Shown here in pieces: positions 25,543-32,068 of a stretch of DNA of 32,068 bases. The notes below the pieces were generated by a model. The model was not told the origin of the DNA. It saw only the letters and a list, made by a program, of their open reading frames with translations, and ran no database searches. Positions within the stretch are counted from its first letter, which is position 1. The number at the start of each line of letters is the position of its first letter. A program made the translations under genes and the position numbers. Location of the stretch: NCBI GenBank assembly GCA_001805695.1, contig MHGT01000007.1, forward strand, positions 19,001-51,068, given 5' to 3'. The DNA comes from Omnitrophica WOR_2 bacterium RIFCSPHIGHO2_02_FULL_67_20. Its GTDB lineage: Bacteria; Omnitrophota; Gorgyraeia; Aquiviventales; Aquiviventaceae.

Positions 25543-26316
25543 ATGGCGCCGCCTCTGCATTTCACTGAGCAGGGCACTGGAACCGCGCTGCTGCTCCTGC
25601 ACGCGTTCCCGCTGTCGCACGCGATGTGGAGCGGGGAGCTCGCGCGCTTTGCGACGATGCGGCGCGTGATCACGCCTGATTTGCCGGGGTTCGGCCGCTC
25701 GCCGCGGCTCACCACACCGTCCATTCCCGCCATGGCCCGGGCGGTGGCCGCGCTGCTGGATGGGCTGGGCATCCGCGAGCCGGTGATGCTGGGCGGCCTC
25801 TCCATGGGCGGCTACGTCGCGCTCGAGTTCTTCCGGCAGTTTCCCGATCGGGTGAAGGCGCTGGGGCTCTTCTCCACGCGGGCCGCGCCAGACTCGCCGG
25901 AGCAGCGCGCGGGGCGCCTGCAGTTGGCCGGCCAGCTCGCGCGGGACGGCATCGAGGCACTGATGCAGACCGCCGTTCCGAAATTACTGGGGCCAACAAC
26001 GAGGGCCCGCCGGCCCGCGGTGGCGGAGCAGGTCGAGCGGGCCGCCCGGGCGGCGAGCGTGGACGGTGTTGCCGATGCGCTGCGCGCCATGGCCGCGCGC
26101 GCGGATTCGCGGCCCCTGCTCGCCGCCATTGGGTGTCCGACGCTGGTCGTGGCCGGCGGCGAGGACCGAGTGATTCCCGTTGCTGAGAGCGAAGCGATGG
26201 CCAAGGCGATTCCCGGTGCTCAGCTCGCAGTGATCCCGGAGGCCGGCCATGTGGTCAACCTCGAGCAGCCGGATGCGTTTCAGGGCATTGTGGAAGCCTG
26301 GATCCGTCACAATTGA
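25543..26316 (+). CDS. Alpha/beta fold hydrolase
   Basis: LHAFP, PDLPGFG.S, GLSMGG nucleophile elbow, GGED, AGHVVNLE. Confidence 0.95.
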   Translation: MAPPLHFTEQGTGTALLLLHAFPLSHAMWSGELARFATMRRVITPDLPGFGRSPRLTTPSIPAMARAVAALLDGLGIREPVMLGGLSMGGYVALEFFRQFPDRVKALGLFSTRAAPDSPEQRAGRLQLAGQLARDGIEALMQTAVPKLLGPTTRARRPAVAEQVERAARAASVDGVADALRAMAARADSRPLLAAIGCPTLVVAGGEDRVIPVAESEAMAKAIPGAQLAVIPEAGHVVNLEQPDAFQGIVEAWIRHN

Positions 26317-26323
26317 AAGGAAA

Positions 26324-26351
26324 GGTGCCAGCTACCGCGGTGCCTGGCACC
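26324..26351. repeat. GC-rich hairpin (REP-like) at the core/accessory boundary
   Basis: GGTGCCAG ... CTGGCACC perfect 8-bp arms; no U-tract on the + strand. Confidence 0.55.
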
Positions 26352-26390
26352 GGGCTGAAGAAGATAAACGGCTGTGGCGAATAAGACCTC

Positions 26391-26419
26391 TTGCCAAGTG
26401 ATAACAGATATGTTATCAT
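26391..26419 (+). promoter_or_regulatory. Sigma70 promoter with overlapping palindromic operator
   Basis: TTGCCA, 17 bp, TATCAT; TGATAACA-gata-TGTTATCA at 26399-26418. Confidence 0.75.
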
Positions 26420-26437
26420 TCTATCGGAGTCAGATCA

Positions 26438-26570
26438 GTGCTGGAAGTCCTGTACTACCCTGAAGGGAGCCGCGTGGCTGGTTCACAGCGTTGAGAAGAA
26501 GAGCGCGAAAACGCCAAGGGATGATCTTGAGCTCGCAAGAAGGAGGCTAAAGGAGGTGACGGCTCGATGA
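26438..26570 (+). pseudogene. Internally deleted RelE/HigB (Gp49-like) toxin
   Basis: N-terminal MLEVLYYPEG joined out of frame to WLVHSVEKKSAKTPRDDLELARRRLKEVTAR*; stop overlaps the antitoxin ATG. Confidence 0.8.
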
Positions 26571-26869
26571 GAGGCTTCGACAAGCACTTGCATGAACTAC
26601 TGGAAGCGCACCCGGAAGCGGCATTGGAGCACGCCAAGCTGTTCGCCGAGCTTCCGCTGCCGACGCAGCTGGCCATCATGCGCCGCCGAAGGAAGCTGTC
26701 TCAACGCGCCTTGGCAAGAAAGCTGAGGGTGCGTCAGCCTCATGTGGCTCGGACCGAAAGCGTCCGTCACGACCCACGCATCTCCTCGGTTGTCCGGGCC
26801 GCTAAAGCGGTTCGCTGCCATGTTCTGCTCGTACCGGATGAAGAGCTAAAACGGATCGCGGTGGCGTAA
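26567..26869 (+). CDS. XRE/HTH antitoxin (HigA-like)
   Basis: RRRRKLSQRALARKL.VRQPHVAR.E; AAGGAGGT RBS; follows the toxin remnant. Confidence 0.88.
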   Translation: MRGFDKHLHELLEAHPEAALEHAKLFAELPLPTQLAIMRRRRKLSQRALARKLRVRQPHVARTESVRHDPRISSVVRAAKAVRCHVLLVPDEELKRIAVA

Positions 26870-26885
26870 CAGTCAGGCGTTATTC

Positions 26886-26918
26886 ACGGCCCGTCGGATG
26901 ACCGGCGGGCCGTTTTTG
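26886..26918 (+). terminator. Intrinsic terminator
   Basis: ACGGCCCGTCGG-atga-CCGGCGGGCCGT followed by TTTT. Confidence 0.8.
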
Positions 26919-27133
26919 TGTCCGTGAGAAGCAGGTAGGAGTAAAATAAACTGGTTACTTGTGCCCGGCGCAAGATGGCGCTGAAGCTGCTGAAGGAACT
27001 GAATGGGTATGAATAAGTGTTTCAGCGCGAGCAGGAAATGGTAATGTGGCATCGGAAGTTCCCTGGAATTCCTTGATCATTCCTAAGGTGGTGCCGGATA
27101 AGCAGTGGTCCGTGACGACCCGAGAGCAGTCTG

Positions 27134-27757
27134 ATGAGCAACCAAAGAGCCAATAGCGGAGAGCATGATGCTTGGAGAGTGCTCTTGCCGGTCATCATTG
27201 GTGGAGTGCTCGCAACAGTTGGCGGCATCGTAAGCCAGTATTGTGCGTCGCAGTTTCAATTCTCGACTGAAGCTCGCATCGAGAAGATTCAGGAACAGCG
27301 CCAGGTCTTTGCGCGGCTCATGGGGCGGAAGTTTGCCACCAAGCAACTGCATGTCTCTCGTTACGAGGCGCTCGTCTTTTCTGATTATCACGAGGCGCGT
27401 TGGAAGCGCGCTGGCTCGCCGAACGATTCTCTCGACCTGCAAGAGGCACAGCGCTGGATGCACCGTAGCGAGGATCTTGTTTTCGAGATCGTAAGGAACA
27501 ACCAAATCCTCTTTGAAGACATCGGAGTCGCCCGTGCGCTGTTCCCCAATACGCCGCGCCTTCGCGAATTGGTGGATCGGATTTACAGCTTCAAGGCCCT
27601 GAAAATGTCACAACCTCCAGATGATGCTTCGTTGGAGGAGTTGGTCCAGTGGAAGGACGAGTCTGTTCGGCAGCTACAGTCGGTGGTTGATCGCGAATAC
27701 GGAGAACCAATCGATGAGCTTCTGGTCTACCTCTCGCAGCAGCTTCCGATGGATTGA
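27134..27757 (+). CDS. Hypothetical protein with one N-terminal TM helix
   Basis: 207-aa ORF with hydrophobic VLLPVIIGGVLATVGGIVS followed by a helical soluble region; family not recognised. Confidence 0.75.
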   Translation: MSNQRANSGEHDAWRVLLPVIIGGVLATVGGIVSQYCASQFQFSTEARIEKIQEQRQVFARLMGRKFATKQLHVSRYEALVFSDYHEARWKRAGSPNDSLDLQEAQRWMHRSEDLVFEIVRNNQILFEDIGVARALFPNTPRLRELVDRIYSFKALKMSQPPDDASLEELVQWKDESVRQLQSVVDREYGEPIDELLVYLSQQLPMD

Positions 27758-27842
27758 GTTCGGTGGCGGAGCTCTCGAAAGATTTGCCTAACCGAGGTAT
27801 ACACCCGGAACGGAATTCCGGTGACACAATACTATTTCCGAA

Positions 27843-27878
27843 ATGAATAAGCCTCTCGCGGTCGTTACGTACGGATGT
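27843..27878 (+). pseudogene. miaB: miaB-like 5' fragment 1 (MNKPLAVVTYGC)
   Basis: ATG AAT AAG CCT CTC GCG GTC GTT ACG TAC GGA TGT, then unrelated sequence to TAA 27920; same Met-to-TYG spacing as the other fragments. Confidence 0.6.
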
Positions 27879-27921
27879 TCCCTCGACTTGCTCTGCGGCC
27901 GCTTCGCGGCCGTCAAATAAA

Positions 27922-28086
27922 ATGTGGATGAGGGGTCCGGTTGTTCCCTCGTCGCGGATCTCGGCCGTCGGCCTCGACCGCTCCTCAGTTTGGGAGGAAC
28001 ACCTTAGTAATATGTGGATGTGGGGTCCGGTTGTTGCCTCGTCGGAGATCTCCGCCTTCGGCGTCGACTCCTCCTCGGCATCAACC
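27922..28086. repeat. Two 65-bp direct repeats (period 90) folding into covarying hairpins
   Basis: 27922-27986 versus 28012-28076: 56/65 identical by my count, with 6 of the 9 differences forming three compensatory pairs. Confidence 0.85.
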
Positions 28087-28150
28087 ATAGGTCTGGAGTG
28101 AGGATGGTCCTCAGATGAGTAAGAGCATTTTTCTCCAGACCTATGGTTGA
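28081..28150. repeat. Perfect 18-bp inverted repeat
   Basis: TCAACCATAGGTCTGGAG (28081-98) / CTCCAGACCTATGGTTGA (28133-50). Confidence 0.95.
28115..28150 (+). pseudogene. miaB: miaB-like 5' fragment 2 (MSKSIFLQTYG*)
   Basis: Aligns without gaps to MTKSIHLITYGC; GAGGA RBS at 28100-04; TGA at the Cys position. Confidence 0.75.
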
Positions 28151-28294
28151 CCATATGTGTCTAAAAGGGGGATTCCTGATAGGGAGATTTGGTGGAGGAG
28201 ACCAAGAAGGCTTGGTAGCGCTTCCTTAGTGCTTCAGACGGTGGCTGAGGGGTTGCAGGTGGCGCTGGCCTCGACGTAACCAGGGAGCCGTAAA

Positions 28295-28675
28295 ATGGTG
28301 GTCAACGAGGCGTTCGGCTGGTTGTGGATTGTGCTGGGTTTCGCTTCAGGAACGCTCCTGGGGCTGAAGTTCCAGAGCGAAAGCTGGCTGGGAGGCTACG
28401 GTTCTCACAGACGGCGACTGATTCGCCTGGGCCACATTTCCTTCCTGGGACTTGGATTTTTGAACATCCTGTTCGCACATAGTCTTCCGCAACTTCGCCT
28501 GAGCCAGGCATGGTTATCGCTGGCTTCGTGGAGTTTGATGCTCGGAGGTGTGACCATGCCAGTGTGCTGTGGCTTGATGGCATGGCGGAAGAATCTGCAA
28601 CCAATTTTCGCCATCCCAGTCGTTGCCCTTCTCATCGGTGCGTTCCTGGTGCTGATCGGTATGGTGCAGCCATGA
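28295..28675 (+). CDS. Hypothetical 4-TM membrane protein
   Basis: Four hydrophobic segments, LGGYGS.RRRLIRLGH motif, GGAG RBS, ATGA coupling to the next gene. Confidence 0.85.
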   Translation: MVVNEAFGWLWIVLGFASGTLLGLKFQSESWLGGYGSHRRRLIRLGHISFLGLGFLNILFAHSLPQLRLSQAWLSLASWSLMLGGVTMPVCCGLMAWRKNLQPIFAIPVVALLIGAFLVLIGMVQP

Positions 28676-30063
28676 AAGTCGGCTTCATCGCCATGAGTGG
28701 TGTGCGAGCGTACAACGAGGAACTCACGCGAATTGGGCTGACGCTTCCTGGTTTTGTCGAACGCAGCCAGGTCATTGCTTCATTGCCGAGCCTTTCACTT
28801 CTGACATTGGCGGCGATGACTCCACCGCCAATCGAGGTTGAGTATCGTGAGATCAAAGATTTGCGAAACACACCACCCCTTCCTACCGATTACGATCTGG
28901 TCGCCATCTCGTCCTTCTCTGCCCAAATCTACGAAGCCTACCAAGTCGCCGATGAGTATCGCAGACAGGGAATCCCTGTGGTTCTTGGCGGGCTTCATGT
29001 CAGCGTATTACCTGAAGAAGCGAAAACACATTGTACAAGTGTGGTAGTTGGCGAAGGTGAAATATCATGGGGGAAGGTTGTTGCCGATTTCGTTGCAGGG
29101 AAGCTCCAAGACTATTACACCCCTGCTGGGGAGTCGTACAACTTGGCAGACGCTCCGATTCCCCGTTACGAATTGCTAGACATCGAGCAATACAACCGGC
29201 TGACAGTCCAAACCAGTAGAGGCTGTCCTCACCGCTGCGATTTCTGCGCTAGTTCCATTCTGTTGACCCCCAAGTACAAGGTCAAACCTGTTGAACAGGT
29301 CATCGCCGAGATTCGAAGGATCAAGGCGATCTGGAAGCATCCATTCATCGAGTTCGCTGACGACAACAGCTTTGTAATTCGAGAGTATTACAAACGCCTG
29401 CTGCGTGCGCTCAAAGATGAAGGGCTTCGTTGGTTTACGGAAGCAGACATCTCCGTTGCCGAGGATGAGGGGTTGCTGCATCTGATGCGTGAAAGCGGCT
29501 GTCGGCAGGTGCTCATCGGCTTGGAAAGTCCCACACCGCAGGGCTTGGATGGCGTCGAGCAGCGGCGAAACTGGAAACTGAAGAAACTGCCGGACTACGA
29601 GTCAGCGATTCGTACCATTCAAGGGCATGGGATCACTGTGGATGGATGCTTCATCTTGGGACTGGATGGAGATGGTGAAGACATCTTTGATCGCGTCTAC
29701 GAGTTTGTCGAGAATACAGGATTGTATGAAGTGCAACTGACCGTACTGACGCCATTTCCTGGCACGCCGCTCTATCACCGCCTGAGACAGGAAGGGCGTT
29801 TACTCGAAGATCGAGCCTGGCACAAATGCACGCTCTTTGATGTGAATTACGTGCCCAAGCAGATGTCGGTTGAAAGGTTGGAACGTGGATTGGTGGAGCT
29901 ATCAAGAAGGATTTACGATAGTGCGTTTATTCGTGATCGAAGGAGACGCTTTTTCAAGACGCTGCGGAGAAGTGGAGTGGAGTGGTTGCAAAAAATGGAG
30001 GAGGGATGGGGCGATGAGTATCGGGACGATCAAGAAGCTGTTTGTGATCGCCGCGCTGTATGA
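28672..30063 (+). CDS. B12-binding domain radical SAM protein
   Basis: PSLSLLTLAAMTP, VVLGGLH, VVGEGE, QTSRGCPHRCDFC (CxxxCxxC), FADDN, IGLES, FILGLDGD, LTPFPGTPL. Confidence 0.95.
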   Translation: MKVGFIAMSGVRAYNEELTRIGLTLPGFVERSQVIASLPSLSLLTLAAMTPPPIEVEYREIKDLRNTPPLPTDYDLVAISSFSAQIYEAYQVADEYRRQGIPVVLGGLHVSVLPEEAKTHCTSVVVGEGEISWGKVVADFVAGKLQDYYTPAGESYNLADAPIPRYELLDIEQYNRLTVQTSRGCPHRCDFCASSILLTPKYKVKPVEQVIAEIRRIKAIWKHPFIEFADDNSFVIREYYKRLLRALKDEGLRWFTEADISVAEDEGLLHLMRESGCRQVLIGLESPTPQGLDGVEQRRNWKLKKLPDYESAIRTIQGHGITVDGCFILGLDGDGEDIFDRVYEFVENTGLYEVQLTVLTPFPGTPLYHRLRQEGRLLEDRAWHKCTLFDVNYVPKQMSVERLERGLVELSRRIYDSAFIRDRRRRFFKTLRRSGVEWLQKMEEGWGDEYRDDQEAVCDRRAV

Positions 30064-30394
30064 TTTTGTTCTGGGTGTAGTCTTTTTGGTGGCTTGGAAG
30101 CAGGTCTACAACTATTTCGGGGTGACGCTCCCGAACCACGATGGCTACGTGCAATTTGGGGCGGCACTGGTGGCAATCTTCGGGGTTGGGTTTTGGCTTG
30201 TGGCGCAGAACCCTGAGCGCAACCGTGACATCATCAAAATGGGTGTCCTGTTGAAAATCGCATATTCGGGCGTAGTGCTTGGACACCACTTCTTCGGGAT
30301 GGTTCCAGGCGTGTGGGTTCCGTTTGCCTGGTGCGATCTTGTTTTTCTAGCGTTATTCGTAGCGGCACTGCGTGCCCTGCCATCAAGGGCGTAG
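30014..30394 (+). CDS. Hypothetical 4-TM membrane protein
   Basis: LF.IAALYD..LG, P.RNRDII.MG...K, W.DL.F..LF; 50-nt overlap with the radical SAM gene. Confidence 0.82.
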   Translation: MSIGTIKKLFVIAALYDFVLGVVFLVAWKQVYNYFGVTLPNHDGYVQFGAALVAIFGVGFWLVAQNPERNRDIIKMGVLLKIAYSGVVLGHHFFGMVPGVWVPFAWCDLVFLALFVAALRALPSRA

Positions 30395-30443
30395 GATAGC
30401 AGAGACTTCTTGCGTGACATAATTGCCCGCTGATCATATGAAT

Positions 30444-30650
30444 ATGACGAAATCCATACATTTAATCACTTACGGCTGTCAGATGAATGAAAGAGATTCC
30501 GAGGAGGTGCTCGGGATGCTGACGGCGCAGGGCTACGAGATCGCCGGGCAGCCGGAAGACGCGGACGTCATCCTCCTGAACACCTGCTCGGTACGAGCCC
30601 ATGCCGAGGAGCGGGCGTTTGGGAAGCTTTCGGGTAGAGAATATTGTTGA
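30444..30650 (+). pseudogene. miaB: miaB 5' fragment 3 (truncated UPF0004 domain, about 62 MiaB-like residues)
   Basis: TYGCQMNERDSE, ADVILLNTCSVR..AEERAFGKL, then SGREYC*; no radical SAM domain follows. Confidence 0.93.
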
Positions 30651-30682
30651 CATACAATCCATTTTCGTAGAATATTGACAGT
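30638..30682 (+). promoter_or_regulatory. Candidate promoter of the AAA ATPase gene
   Basis: AT-rich; TTGACA (30647-52) and TAGAAT (30668-73, 15-bp spacing is suboptimal); AGAATATTG repeated twice; no RBS, so possibly near-leaderless. Confidence 0.45.
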
Positions 30683-31867
30683 ATGGAATACATCACTAGA
30701 CTGCTGGAACAGAAAATCCGACGGGCCCTCCATCGCAATAGAAGCATCCTGCTCTTCGGGGCCCGGCAGACCGGCAAGACCACGCTGATCAGCCGCTTTC
30801 ACGCGGATCTGGTCATCACCCTCGTGAGGCCGGACATCCGTCAGCGGTATGAAAAGTCACCACAGCTACTGGCCGGTGAGGTGGAGGCGCTCGCCCCCAC
30901 AGCCGCGAACACACGTCCGCTGGTCGTTGTCGATGAAGTGCAAAAAGTGCCAACGTTGTTGGATGTGGTGCAGGACCTCATTGACCGGGGCCGCGCCAAT
31001 TTTGTGCTGACGGGGTCCAGCGCTCGAAAACTTCGCCGCGGCGCCGTCGTCAATCTCCTGCCGGGGCGCGTGGCCACGTTCAGGTTAGATCCGTTCAGTT
31101 TGCGGGAAGTGCCCGCACAGGACGTGCATGAGCGCCTGCTGTACGGGTCGTTGCCCGGCATGCTGGCGGTGCCGGATCGTGCAGATCGAGAAACCGATTT
31201 GGAATCGTATGTGACGACGTATCTGGAAGAAGAGGTGCGGGCAGAGGCGCTTGTGCGGAATGTGGGCGATTTTGCCAGGTTTCTTGAGCTGGCCGCATCC
31301 GAATCCGGCAACATCGTCAACTTGAGAAAATTGTCTCAGGAGATCGGCGTGTCCCATACGACGATCGGGGCCTACTACCAAATTCTCGAAGACTGCCTGA
31401 TCGCCGAGCGGATTGAGCCCGTGACCCACAGCAAGACGAGGAAGAAACTGACCAAATCCGAAAAATACCTGTTCTTTGATTTGGGGGTCCGGCGTCTGGC
31501 AGCCCGAGAAGGCACGAAACTGCCGCGCGATACCTTCGGGCGGCTGTTTGAGCAATTCGTTGGTCTGGAACTGGTTCGGTGCGCCCATGCTGCGCACCGA
31601 ACCCTCGCCATCCGCTTTTGGCGTGATCCGGACGGCCCGGAAGTGGATTGGGTCATCGACGATGAGGGGGCCTATGCCCCCGTGGAAGTGAAATGGACGG
31701 ACCATCCTCGATCCGGCGACATCCGCCATCTGGAAGTGTTCCTCGACGAATATCCCTCGGCCAGGGCCGGGTACATCGTGTGTCACGTGCCGCGTAAAAC
31801 CAAGCTGAGCCGCCGCGTCGTCGCGCTGCCCTGGCAAGCCATTGACGAGCTGATCCCTGCGTCATGA
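30683..31867 (+). CDS. AAA_14 / DUF4143 ATP-binding protein with C-terminal nuclease-like motif
   Basis: GARQTGKTT, VVVDEVQK, LTGSSARKL, NLLPGR, YGSLP, KYLFFDLGV, EVDWV...VEVK. Confidence 0.93.
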   Translation: MEYITRLLEQKIRRALHRNRSILLFGARQTGKTTLISRFHADLVITLVRPDIRQRYEKSPQLLAGEVEALAPTAANTRPLVVVDEVQKVPTLLDVVQDLIDRGRANFVLTGSSARKLRRGAVVNLLPGRVATFRLDPFSLREVPAQDVHERLLYGSLPGMLAVPDRADRETDLESYVTTYLEEEVRAEALVRNVGDFARFLELAASESGNIVNLRKLSQEIGVSHTTIGAYYQILEDCLIAERIEPVTHSKTRKKLTKSEKYLFFDLGVRRLAAREGTKLPRDTFGRLFEQFVGLELVRCAHAAHRTLAIRFWRDPDGPEVDWVIDDEGAYAPVEVKWTDHPRSGDIRHLEVFLDEYPSARAGYIVCHVPRKTKLSRRVVALPWQAIDELIPAS

Positions 31868-31899
31868 CCCGCGCGATCTTTCTTCAAACCTATGGGTGA
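31864..31899 (+). pseudogene. miaB: miaB-like 5' fragment 4 (MTRAIFLQTYG*)
   Basis: ATGA overlap with the ATPase stop; IFLQTYG identical to fragment 2 with only synonymous changes; TGA at the Cys position. Confidence 0.78.
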
Positions 31900-32068
31900 C
31901 CATAGTGGTGCAATACCTGGACTCCCCGCACTATCCAGACAGGCTGTTGCGGAGGACGCCAACCAAGTGTTCGAGGCGCTGGCCGATGGGTTCCGCCTTG
32001 TGCTGGCAGGAATAGAGTTGAAGTGATCATGGTAGTGACCCGCTCACTGCAGATGCTCACGGCAGTCG

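Follow-up and report, generated by a model that had tools for sequence, protein, structure and literature searches.

Integrons are the textbook example of bacteria banking and shuffling small gene cassettes. The array described here lies at the end of a 32,068-nucleotide stretch of DNA (the window) from contig MHGT01000007.1, positions 19,001 to 51,068, of Omnitrophica WOR_2 bacterium RIFCSPHIGHO2_02_FULL_67_20, and is made up of short units that meet at copies of the first codons of the tRNA-modification gene miaB. Insertion into the 5' end of a gene has been described elsewhere. The islands and prophages covered by the available part of PMC4482086 integrate in the 5' end of dusA, supply it with a new 5' end and leave a remnant. 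Phage JC1, in the available part of PMC9144972, is 61 kb in length and integrates in the 5' end of rimO via an 18-bp overlap beside its serine recombinase gene, which lies 41 bp from attP. By analogy with dusA and rimO, site-specific insertion that repairs its target gene would be of a kind already known. No account of miaB cassettes or of such arrays in Omnitrophota was found in the open-access literature, which is not proof that there is none.

The reading preferred here, with a probability of roughly 0.6, is that the last 5.7 kb of the window is an array of small co-oriented cassettes arising from repeated site-specific insertion at one point of miaB. We infer recombination from the anatomy of the array, its precise and recurrent junction, its modularity, the polymorphism between occupied and empty sites, and its spread through the family, all of which are observed.

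The break in the Cys-12 codon of miaB

The first-pass annotation of the window had drawn attention to two 29-mers, at 28127-28155 (site 1) and 31876-31904 (site 2), as miaB fragments that break at the same base within a palindrome. They are present as quoted and are identical at 25 of 29 positions, with the four differences (ATT/ATC, CTC/CTT, CAG/CAA, and GGT/GGG) all in synonymous third positions of the codons for I-F-L-Q-T-Y-G, and the dyads TATGGT-TG-ACCATA and CTATGG-GTGA-CCATAG are both there. Each 29-mer sits in an 11-codon open reading frame (ORF), starting with the ATG at 28115 and at 31864 respectively, which is then followed by TGA. In the window the motif is matched exactly on the forward strand twice, where 0.02 matches would be expected, and none of 100 shuffles reached three; there is no other copy in the 845-kb assembly. 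Two more MiaB starts, which that annotation did not include, begin at 27843 and 30444.

Pieces of 11 codons are too short for any protein model, and these were assigned through the MiaB start on contig C36 of the same assembly (34/35) and through the intact MiaB starts of relatives. There are three matches to UPF0004 in the assembly, one of them the intact MiaB of C36, a protein of 548 aa beginning MNRAIFLQTYG that scores 462.6 bits with TIGR01574, where the cut-off is 355.3, and 279 and 275 bits with the models for MtaB and RimO, in both cases under their cut-offs. The miaB product adjoining the array in relative G041 scores 422 bits with TIGR01574. The C36 protein (G000:C36:96-1742, locus L001) matches the MiaB model in three stretches and has a low-complexity insert of ~100 residues, rich in Pro, Thr, and Asn, after the N-terminal domain.

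Contig C36 starts with the same ATPase gene tail and the same MiaB start as site 2, and matches window positions 31769-31898 over 130 nt with one single-nucleotide polymorphism. After ...TATGGGTG, C36 continues as CQMN... into miaB and the window continues as ACCATAG. The place where the two pieces depart from MiaB is thus immediately 3' of the TG in the Cys-12 codon, in agreement with the claim of a common point of departure. There are, within one assembly, an occupied form (the window) and an empty form (C36) of one site, and the C36 form is also carried by a contig with a depth of 9.35 in run X1, the best-matching public run.

It was further proposed that the start peptides had been under selection as working N-termini. 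This fits, in that MSKTIFLQTYG (G001, G014, and G023), MKKRLAVITYG (G009), and the C36 start all head intact MiaB proteins, the G009 peptide being related to the MNKPLAVVTYG of the window.

In a DNA search of 40 relatives and the window's own genome, matches were found in 24 of the 41, and several relatives have, just upstream of miaB, the tandem units and the sequence that follows site 2 in the window. Twenty regions were taken first and others added, every T-Y-G codon run followed by TG was listed, and starts were classified by hand across 25 non-redundant loci (182 kb, with 18 intact miaB genes). About 25 displaced MiaB starts break exactly at GGN/TG and continue as sequence that is not miaB, as against five that run on into miaB, a count that leaves out three inverted copies and two probable chance matches. 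The Q-T-Y-G codon motif has TG next in 28 of its 30 occurrences, the other two being without start context. The breakpoints therefore cluster at GGN/TG and do not scatter, and the association of the motif with miaB holds, in that an array whose right side is visible ends either at an intact miaB or at a remnant of it. The displaced starts are not products of random decay. Where the annotation argued for site-specific recombination in place of such decay, the recurrent single-base junction is in its favour, and neither a recombinase in or beside the arrays nor an excision product was found among the genomes and contigs searched; its "att core" is a shared dyad junction whose proposed role rests on anatomy.

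The dominant symmetry at site 1 is a perfect 18-nt inverted repeat (28081-28098 and 28133-28150), for which the DNA fold has z = -6.5 and which accompanies some start types only. The short dyad of site 2 does not fold more stably than shuffled sequence (z = 0.2), and a hairpin at the short dyad was rejected because its stability is within that of the shuffles. Perfect inverted repeats of 15-18 nt, in which the region upstream of the ribosome-binding site pairs with MiaB codons 7-11, are seen in the window (28081-28150) and in L016 (G023), L017 (G014), L014 (G019), and L012 (G008), with a smaller hairpin over GAGGA in the loop. They are also found before the intact miaB of several relatives, and may serve to control the translation of miaB or belong to the recombination site.

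Cassette structure and distribution

The landing pad would be the point in miaB that follows the TG of codon Cys-12 (...ACN TAY GGN TG/). A cassette would have three parts: a conserved left end of ~130 nt beginning TG-RCCRTA..., in most classes encoding a small peptide; cargo of 0 to 3 genes; and a right end comprising a complete ribosome-binding leader and the first 11 MiaB codons. The joined ends of the cassette would recombine at TG with the site in miaB, shifting the previous start leftward, where it would be fused to the left end of the newcomer, with TGA in classes A and E. The start of the newcomer would then be in frame with miaB, so that miaB would stay intact and the newest cassette would supply the N-terminus of MiaB. 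The probable recombination core is the TAYGGN-TG-RCCRTA dyad, with TG at its centre. The cassettes may be moved as circles by a trans-acting recombinase, as in integrons, and their expression may depend on read-through and on translational coupling. In favour of coupling, some stops overlap or directly adjoin the ATG that follows, as the ATPase stop does with the ATG of site 2 (ATGA at 31864).

The left ends fall into several classes, all of which begin TG-RCCRT.... Class A is TGACCATAGT..AATACCTGGACTT, class B is TGGCCGTTGTTCCGAGAA, class D is TGRCCGTATGTGCC... and has a different mini-ORF, of 13 codons, and class E, the site 1 type, is TGACCRNAYGTGTCTAAA, its first ~25 nt being present at three other junctions too. 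Class C units (TGTTCCCTCG...) are without cargo. The end of the start module is repeated, as its inverted complement, in the opening bases of classes A, B, D, and E, which produces the dyad that had been noted, centred on the non-palindromic TG; TAYGGN-TG-RCCRTA in these classes consists of imperfect inverted repeats around a non-palindromic dinucleotide. The stop that the junction was said to put on the displaced start is there in classes A and E (TGA), but not at that codon in classes B and D (TGG).

Classes A and B and the site 1 left end have a common block at ~+70 to +120, encoding ...V-F/L-E/Q-A-L-A-E-G-F/L-R/Q-V/L-A/V-L-A..., in which variation is mainly at third codon positions (18 copies). 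In many copies a stop follows shortly after this block, a few bases before the ATG of the cargo. The peptide matched no Pfam family, and a single predicted homologue (41 aa) was found among 5.8 billion proteins. A programmed +1 frameshift fusing the start and left-end peptides was considered and dropped, as the slippery GGN codon varies and TAC-type starts give no ATG.

When all loci were compared with one another by BLAST, left ends (from the junction to +105-130 nt, with 72-83% identity) and class C/start units made up nearly all of the sequence shared between arrays outside miaB, and the cargo behind shared left ends differs between arrays. At least 10 different start peptides are followed by a class A left end. 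When a degenerate class A pattern leaving out the TYG codons was searched for, it matched at 6 places in species-representative genomes and at 10 in metagenome contigs. Each of the 16 has ...(Y/F)-G codons before it, although these are no part of the pattern, and 14 have an in-frame start codon 8-13 codons upstream, as located by regular expression. One 30-nt start module is 29/30 identical in two genera (G007 and G041), behind unrelated cargo and before differing left ends. Loci L063 and L069 have 79 nt of leader and start in common, ending exactly at TG, after which there is miaB in the one and a left end in the other.

Model R1, a sequence-only model of 18 left ends, matches 21 of 35 family genomes at E<=1e-3, 12 of these at E<1e-10, with 1-13 copies per genome. 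The right side of the array is an intact miaB in G007:C16, G008:C8, G019:C45, G041/G051:C16, G052:C5, and L066, and a decayed 5' remnant of miaB in G007:C75, G051:C9, G051:C13, and G050:C36. The remnant is a start, the TG, and then 12-50 nt of CQMNERD-like sequence, and the arrays that end in one lie at loci other than miaB, that of G051:C9 (L042) being between trpD and trpC. In three genomes an array is directly downstream of glmS (G051:C44, L045; G003:C19, L027; G043:C14, L051), a position known as a favoured site of Tn7-like elements. Four co-oriented cassettes precede miaB in each of L066 and L039. That start modules are present in arrays at other loci indicates that they belong to the cassettes, and landing-pad copies seem to seed new arrays elsewhere. 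The "miaB fragments" of the first-pass annotation are thus MiaB-derived starts, yet they are not simply decayed, being modular right ends of cassettes.

In the window there are at least five cassette units (Table 1). The GC content from ~26,400 is 0.51-0.62, compared with 0.65-0.71 before, all ORFs of the window are on the + strand, and the end of the window is the end of the contig.

Table 1. Features of the low-GC island at the end of the window
Feature	Coordinates	Strand	Details and basis
Repetitive extragenic palindromic (REP)-like hairpin, left edge of the low-GC island	26316-26353	.	GC drop; matches in relatives
Toxin-antitoxin cargo	26391-26913	+	Truncated Gp49/HigB-like ORF 26391-26570; helix-turn-helix (HTH) antitoxin 26567-26869; terminator-like hairpin 26886-26913
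Decayed class D left end, 13-codon mini-ORF, no intact start module before it	26948-27020	+	Aligned with class D left ends
Cargo ORF, 207 aa, no Pfam family	27134-27757	+	
MiaB start module MNKPLAVVTYG, break at 27875/TG, fused to short tandem units	27843-27875	+	
Class C mini-cassettes without cargo (TGTTCCCTCG...), tandem units of ~90 nt	27876-28114	+	Direct repeat family D1
Site 1: start module MSKSIFLQTYG and common TG (28148-28149)	28115-28149	+	
Class E left end, small ORF 28157-28279 ending ...VAEGLQVALA	28150-28279	+	Alignments, model R1
Cargo: membrane protein, B12-binding radical SAM enzyme (28672-30063), second membrane protein	28295-30394	+	Pfam
Start module MTKSIHLITYG (30444-30476), then miaB codons 12-66, then cut	30444-30640	+	
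AAA_14/DUF4143 ATPase module with its own promoter-like leader (sites 30647-30702)	30641-31867	+	Pfam
Site 2: start module MTRAIFLQTYG and common TG (31897-31898)	31864-31898	+	
Class A left end (small ORF to 32026) and start of cargo; contig end	31899-32068	+	Model R1

The hairpin at the left edge is GC-rich, is present in two copies in the window's assembly, and is matched over 30-40 nt, with 93-100% identity, by several contigs in each of G005, G016, and G023 and by G000:C33. The family is also rich in Y1/HUH (RAYT-like) genes. The second array of the window's assembly, G000:C33:1-2300 (L071), has in order the REP-like hairpin, an IS110-family transposase gene (PF01548 and PF02371), a unit of class C joined to a left end of class D, and HEAT-repeat cargo to the end of the contig. 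A joint of 26345 to 31891, seen in runs X1, X4, and X6 at depths of 2.4-4.1, consists of the REP-like hairpin, 31 letters encoding the start MTRSTRLMTYG, and a class A left end. It may be another strain's array or another locus, and was not counted as a deletion of the island, its sides being only 30 nt and one of them a repeat.

The Gp49/HigB-like ORF matches PF05973, slightly below the cut-off, and its HTH partner matches PF13560; the pair has 78% identity to a full-length pair upstream of miaB in G023:C3. The former is truncated at its 5' end, at 59 aa versus 112 aa in G023, and the HTH partner is intact, and this looks like a decaying toxin-antitoxin cassette. The hairpin that follows has a 12-pair stem and then a T run. 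The decayed left end at 26948 can be aligned with class D left ends of G041, G051:C9, G019, and L068. Class C units are found directly upstream of intact miaB in G014, G008, G023, and G019, and the last such unit in the window holds the left arm of the 18-nt inverted repeat (I1).

The left end of site 1 is matched by model R1 (C7:47137-47283) with E 2e-17 and that of site 2 with E 5e-27, the latter having 72-83% identity to left ends of relatives. Between them, the cargo behind site 1 has matches to PF04055, PF02310, and PF13282 in Pfam, with B12-rSAM matches in NCBIfam sub-threshold only. The sequence at 30423-30650 matches positions 2-60 of 98 in PF00919 (N-terminal UPF0004) with E 1e-19, and the feature there is taken to be an earlier landing-pad copy to which miaB codons are still attached. 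Homologues of the ATPase in G001, G023, and G015 keep the same leader and have no miaB pieces alongside, and no recombinase was seen adjoining these homologues. Across four genomes (window 30641-30702, L005-L007), the DUF4143 ATPase genes lie in unrelated contexts and have in common a leader of ~50 nt. It contains TTGACA and TAGAA-type boxes, is internally symmetric, and may be a portable promoter/operator.

Cassette units measure 0.1-2.5 kb. Besides the window's truncated HigB-like/HTH pair, unknown ORF, membrane proteins, B12 radical SAM enzyme, and ATPase, the cargo in relatives includes ThsB_TIR, TIR_2, MazF, Fic, AbiEi, HigB/HTH, methyltransferases, glycosyltransferases, pirin, and others, a range typical of cassettes and islands. 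This cargo showed no recombinase among the best 25 of 66 families for 81 ORFs, where a weak match could be hidden, nor in 10 further ORFs.

The putative recombinase and alternative explanations

Several points weigh against repeated site-specific insertion. There is no recombinase in or beside any array, matches to PF00239 and PF00589 never being on array contigs. Genome G051, which has the most copies (13) and is ~90% complete, has no serine recombinase and only two Xer-like tyrosine recombinases, and G019, at 93% complete, has no serine recombinase, two tyrosine recombinases, and no Y1 genes. No circular or excised cassette junction was found in Logan contigs of four runs, although such contigs cannot show rare forms and this is hence evidence neither way. 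The window's own version of site 2, with C at 31868, is in no aligned contig of run X1, where minor variants are dropped from contigs. The five fragments that run on into miaB before they are cut or decay are at window 30444, L012 4280, L015 3811, L028 6145, and L013 3862. The first of these, a piece of 66 codons, is a mosaic with its exchange point ~24 nt past the TG: compared with C36, it has 15/33 matches in the start, 17/24 over nt 34-57, and 123/126 over nt 58-183, and is then unrelated. In addition, all of the genomes are incomplete metagenome-assembled genomes (MAGs), and the window stops at a contig end.

Y1/HUH genes are present in 17 of 24 family genomes, with 10 in G051 and none in the carriers G019 and G014. 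They were rejected as the linked enzyme, as they are unlinked to the arrays, apart from one gene beside the miaB of G009 and one weak fragment within an array at glmS. In G009, which is without displaced starts, there is a partial Y1_Tnp-like ORF (G009:C48:6758-6991, L018; E 8e-8) immediately upstream of, and co-oriented with, the intact miaB. IS110 genes were likewise set aside, being sporadic in carriers and not found in G007 and G008. In rough odds, a serine-type enzyme and one outside all of these groups stand level as the likelier candidates, each well short of even, with a single-strand HUH/Y1 enzyme and Xer or another tyrosine recombinase level with each other somewhat below them.

It is unlikely that the array is a stack of ordinary integrative elements (phages, integrative and conjugative elements, or islands, each with its own integrase) at the 5' end of miaB that have since decayed to stumps without an integrase. 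The dusA islands (PMC4482086) and phage JC1 in rimO (PMC9144972) would be precedents, as far as the available parts of those reports go, and the core resembles a serine-integrase site in having a dyad around the non-palindromic TG. Serine recombinases are found in 6 of 24 family genomes and 2 of 5 more, the large ones on short contigs, with none found in G051, G050, G008, and G019, which are incomplete MAGs. However, among 35 family genomes, 10 metagenome contigs, and 2 extra genomes, none was found to have an intact integrase-bearing element enclosed by a left end and a start, the units are very short, and there are mini-units without cargo in tandem. The eight contigs with serine recombinases (63,466 bases) have no left-end matches and only chance-like TYG-TG matches, and there was no match in viral contigs to the class A and class B patterns. 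The small ORF, with its matching stop, is kept in many left-end copies, which is unlike decay. A 12-nt match to site 1 in L058, one of the serine-recombinase contigs, beside a different palindrome, was judged to be chance (~0.1 expected).

A process without a dedicated recombinase is improbable as the whole explanation. The left-end, start, and miaB 5' modules would here have been shuffled by homology or microhomology, for example after uptake of DNA from relatives, and the junction made once, in an ancestor. Consistent with this, no recombinase was found, the exchange point of the mosaic is inside miaB, the ATPase module is flanked by a 126-nt duplication of miaB with 98% identity, as from a single-crossover insertion, and in G008 a 516-nt internal duplication of cargo lies behind two different left ends. 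The mosaic and the duplicated 126 nt around the ATPase module show that homologous recombination also shapes the arrays. Yet many starts are joined to many left-end variants at one base, with only ~8-11 nt in common, and both flanks of the 30-nt start module of G007 and G041 are unrelated. The left end starts with an inverted, not a direct, copy of the end of the start, which is useless to homologous recombination. Homologous recombination leaves the inverted-repeat core and the many independent joints at one base unexplained.

Less probable again is a canonical integron, with IntI and attC, or an integrative mobile element exploiting Xer (IMEX). The arrays have an integron-like logic, and XerC/XerD-like genes are the only site-specific recombinases in essentially all carriers: most have exactly two tyrosine recombinases, with Xer-like scores (PF00589, E 1e-44 to 1e-53), as do non-carriers in the class. 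A third tyrosine recombinase was not found in G051, G008, G019, and G014, however, and the joints read GGN/TGRCC, not the G/TT by which attC is usually defined. Xer acting at dif was rejected as a simple explanation, as the dif-like sites of G019 (C31), G016 (C163), and G013 (C8) are on other contigs and unlike the core; of the genomes searched, 3 of 24 in the family and 7 of 16 others have a single dif-like site. There were no Rfam matches at E<=1 over 26000-32068. Xer may still be the enzyme that moves the cassettes.

Finally, that the low-GC tail is a chimera on a high-GC contig, with repeats from mis-assembly, might be suggested by the contig end, by the sharpness of the GC drop at ~26,400, by C7 and C36 being alternative paths, and by the site 2 junction not being seen in X1 contigs, but this is very improbable, as the same architecture recurs within long contigs from assemblies and samples independent of this one (G021:C1, 136 kb; G041:C16, 81 kb), the L066 array is complete between core genes and miaB, and run X1 contigs cover the island at an even depth of ~8-11.

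Comparison with described systems

As with the dusA islands in the available part of PMC4482086, the miaB units have a single site, at the 5' end of a gene for tRNA modification, and that gene is made whole again by the element. Those islands are large and have their own tyrosine integrase beside att, unlike the miaB units, which are small and integrase-free, are stacked up to five or more deep, and share a conserved left end, most with a small ORF. The target of JC1, in the available part of PMC9144972, is likewise the first codons of a gene of the MiaB/RimO methylthiotransferase family, with a short shared core, and the serine recombinase implied there fits the miaB dyad around its central dinucleotide; unlike JC1, the miaB arrays are without a phage, without a recombinase, and without matches in viral contigs. 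A target in the first codons with a restored 5' end was found at miaB, as in islands of the dusA and rimO type, and an adjacent integrase of their own was not.

The att site of a serine integrase consists of imperfect inverted repeats around a non-palindromic central dinucleotide, and the miaB joint conforms to this pattern, as a resemblance in letters only. In the IS200/IS605 and REP/RAYT elements, which have HUH Y1 enzymes, insertion is also directly 3' of a short fixed sequence and without target duplication, and elements without an enzyme can be moved in trans, for which Y1 genes are available in most of the family genomes. Those systems also have conserved subterminal hairpins; in the miaB arrays the 18-nt inverted repeat goes with some start types only, the short dyad is not stable, and the Y1 genes are unlinked.

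Integrons, as generally understood, have co-oriented small cassettes that are mostly without promoters, a conserved recombination module at each joint, cargo rich in toxin-antitoxin and defence genes, the newest cassette beside the insertion site, and some cassettes without cargo, in all of which the miaB arrays are like them. In contrast to integrons, the miaB arrays have no IntI beside the site and no attC R'/R'' boxes at the joints, the site is inside a coding sequence that is repaired by each cassette, and the conserved module is mostly downstream of the crossover and encodes a peptide. A GTTGACC reading is found at site 1 only, the joints otherwise being TAYGGN/TG-RCCRTA, and neither a dif-like site nor integration at dif, as for an IMEX, was found at the joints. 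It is the sedentary chromosomal integrons in particular (compare 10.1101/2024.07.02.601686) that serve as the system for comparison.

It is tentatively suggested, at somewhat less than an even chance, that the miaB arrays are a distinct integron-like platform for gene capture, with a landing site in the first codons of miaB, a conserved housekeeping gene, self-repairing cassettes that each carry a spare MiaB start and in most cases a leader-peptide ORF, a trans-acting recombinase that is neither IntI nor encoded by the cassettes, and landing-pad copies that seed further arrays. Its recombinase may be of a type that so far has no known connection with cassette capture. A site inside an important gene that is repaired by every insert would be an insertion site that is hard to lose, and such a platform would account for the breaks in MAG contigs upstream of miaB, the short MiaB-like ORFs in islands, and the placement of defence and toxin-antitoxin genes. 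If this is true, it points to an unrecognised pair of recombinase and site with single-base precision, and would mean that the capture of cassettes, as known from integrons, has evolved more than once, with a second system in an uncultured phylum with small genomes.

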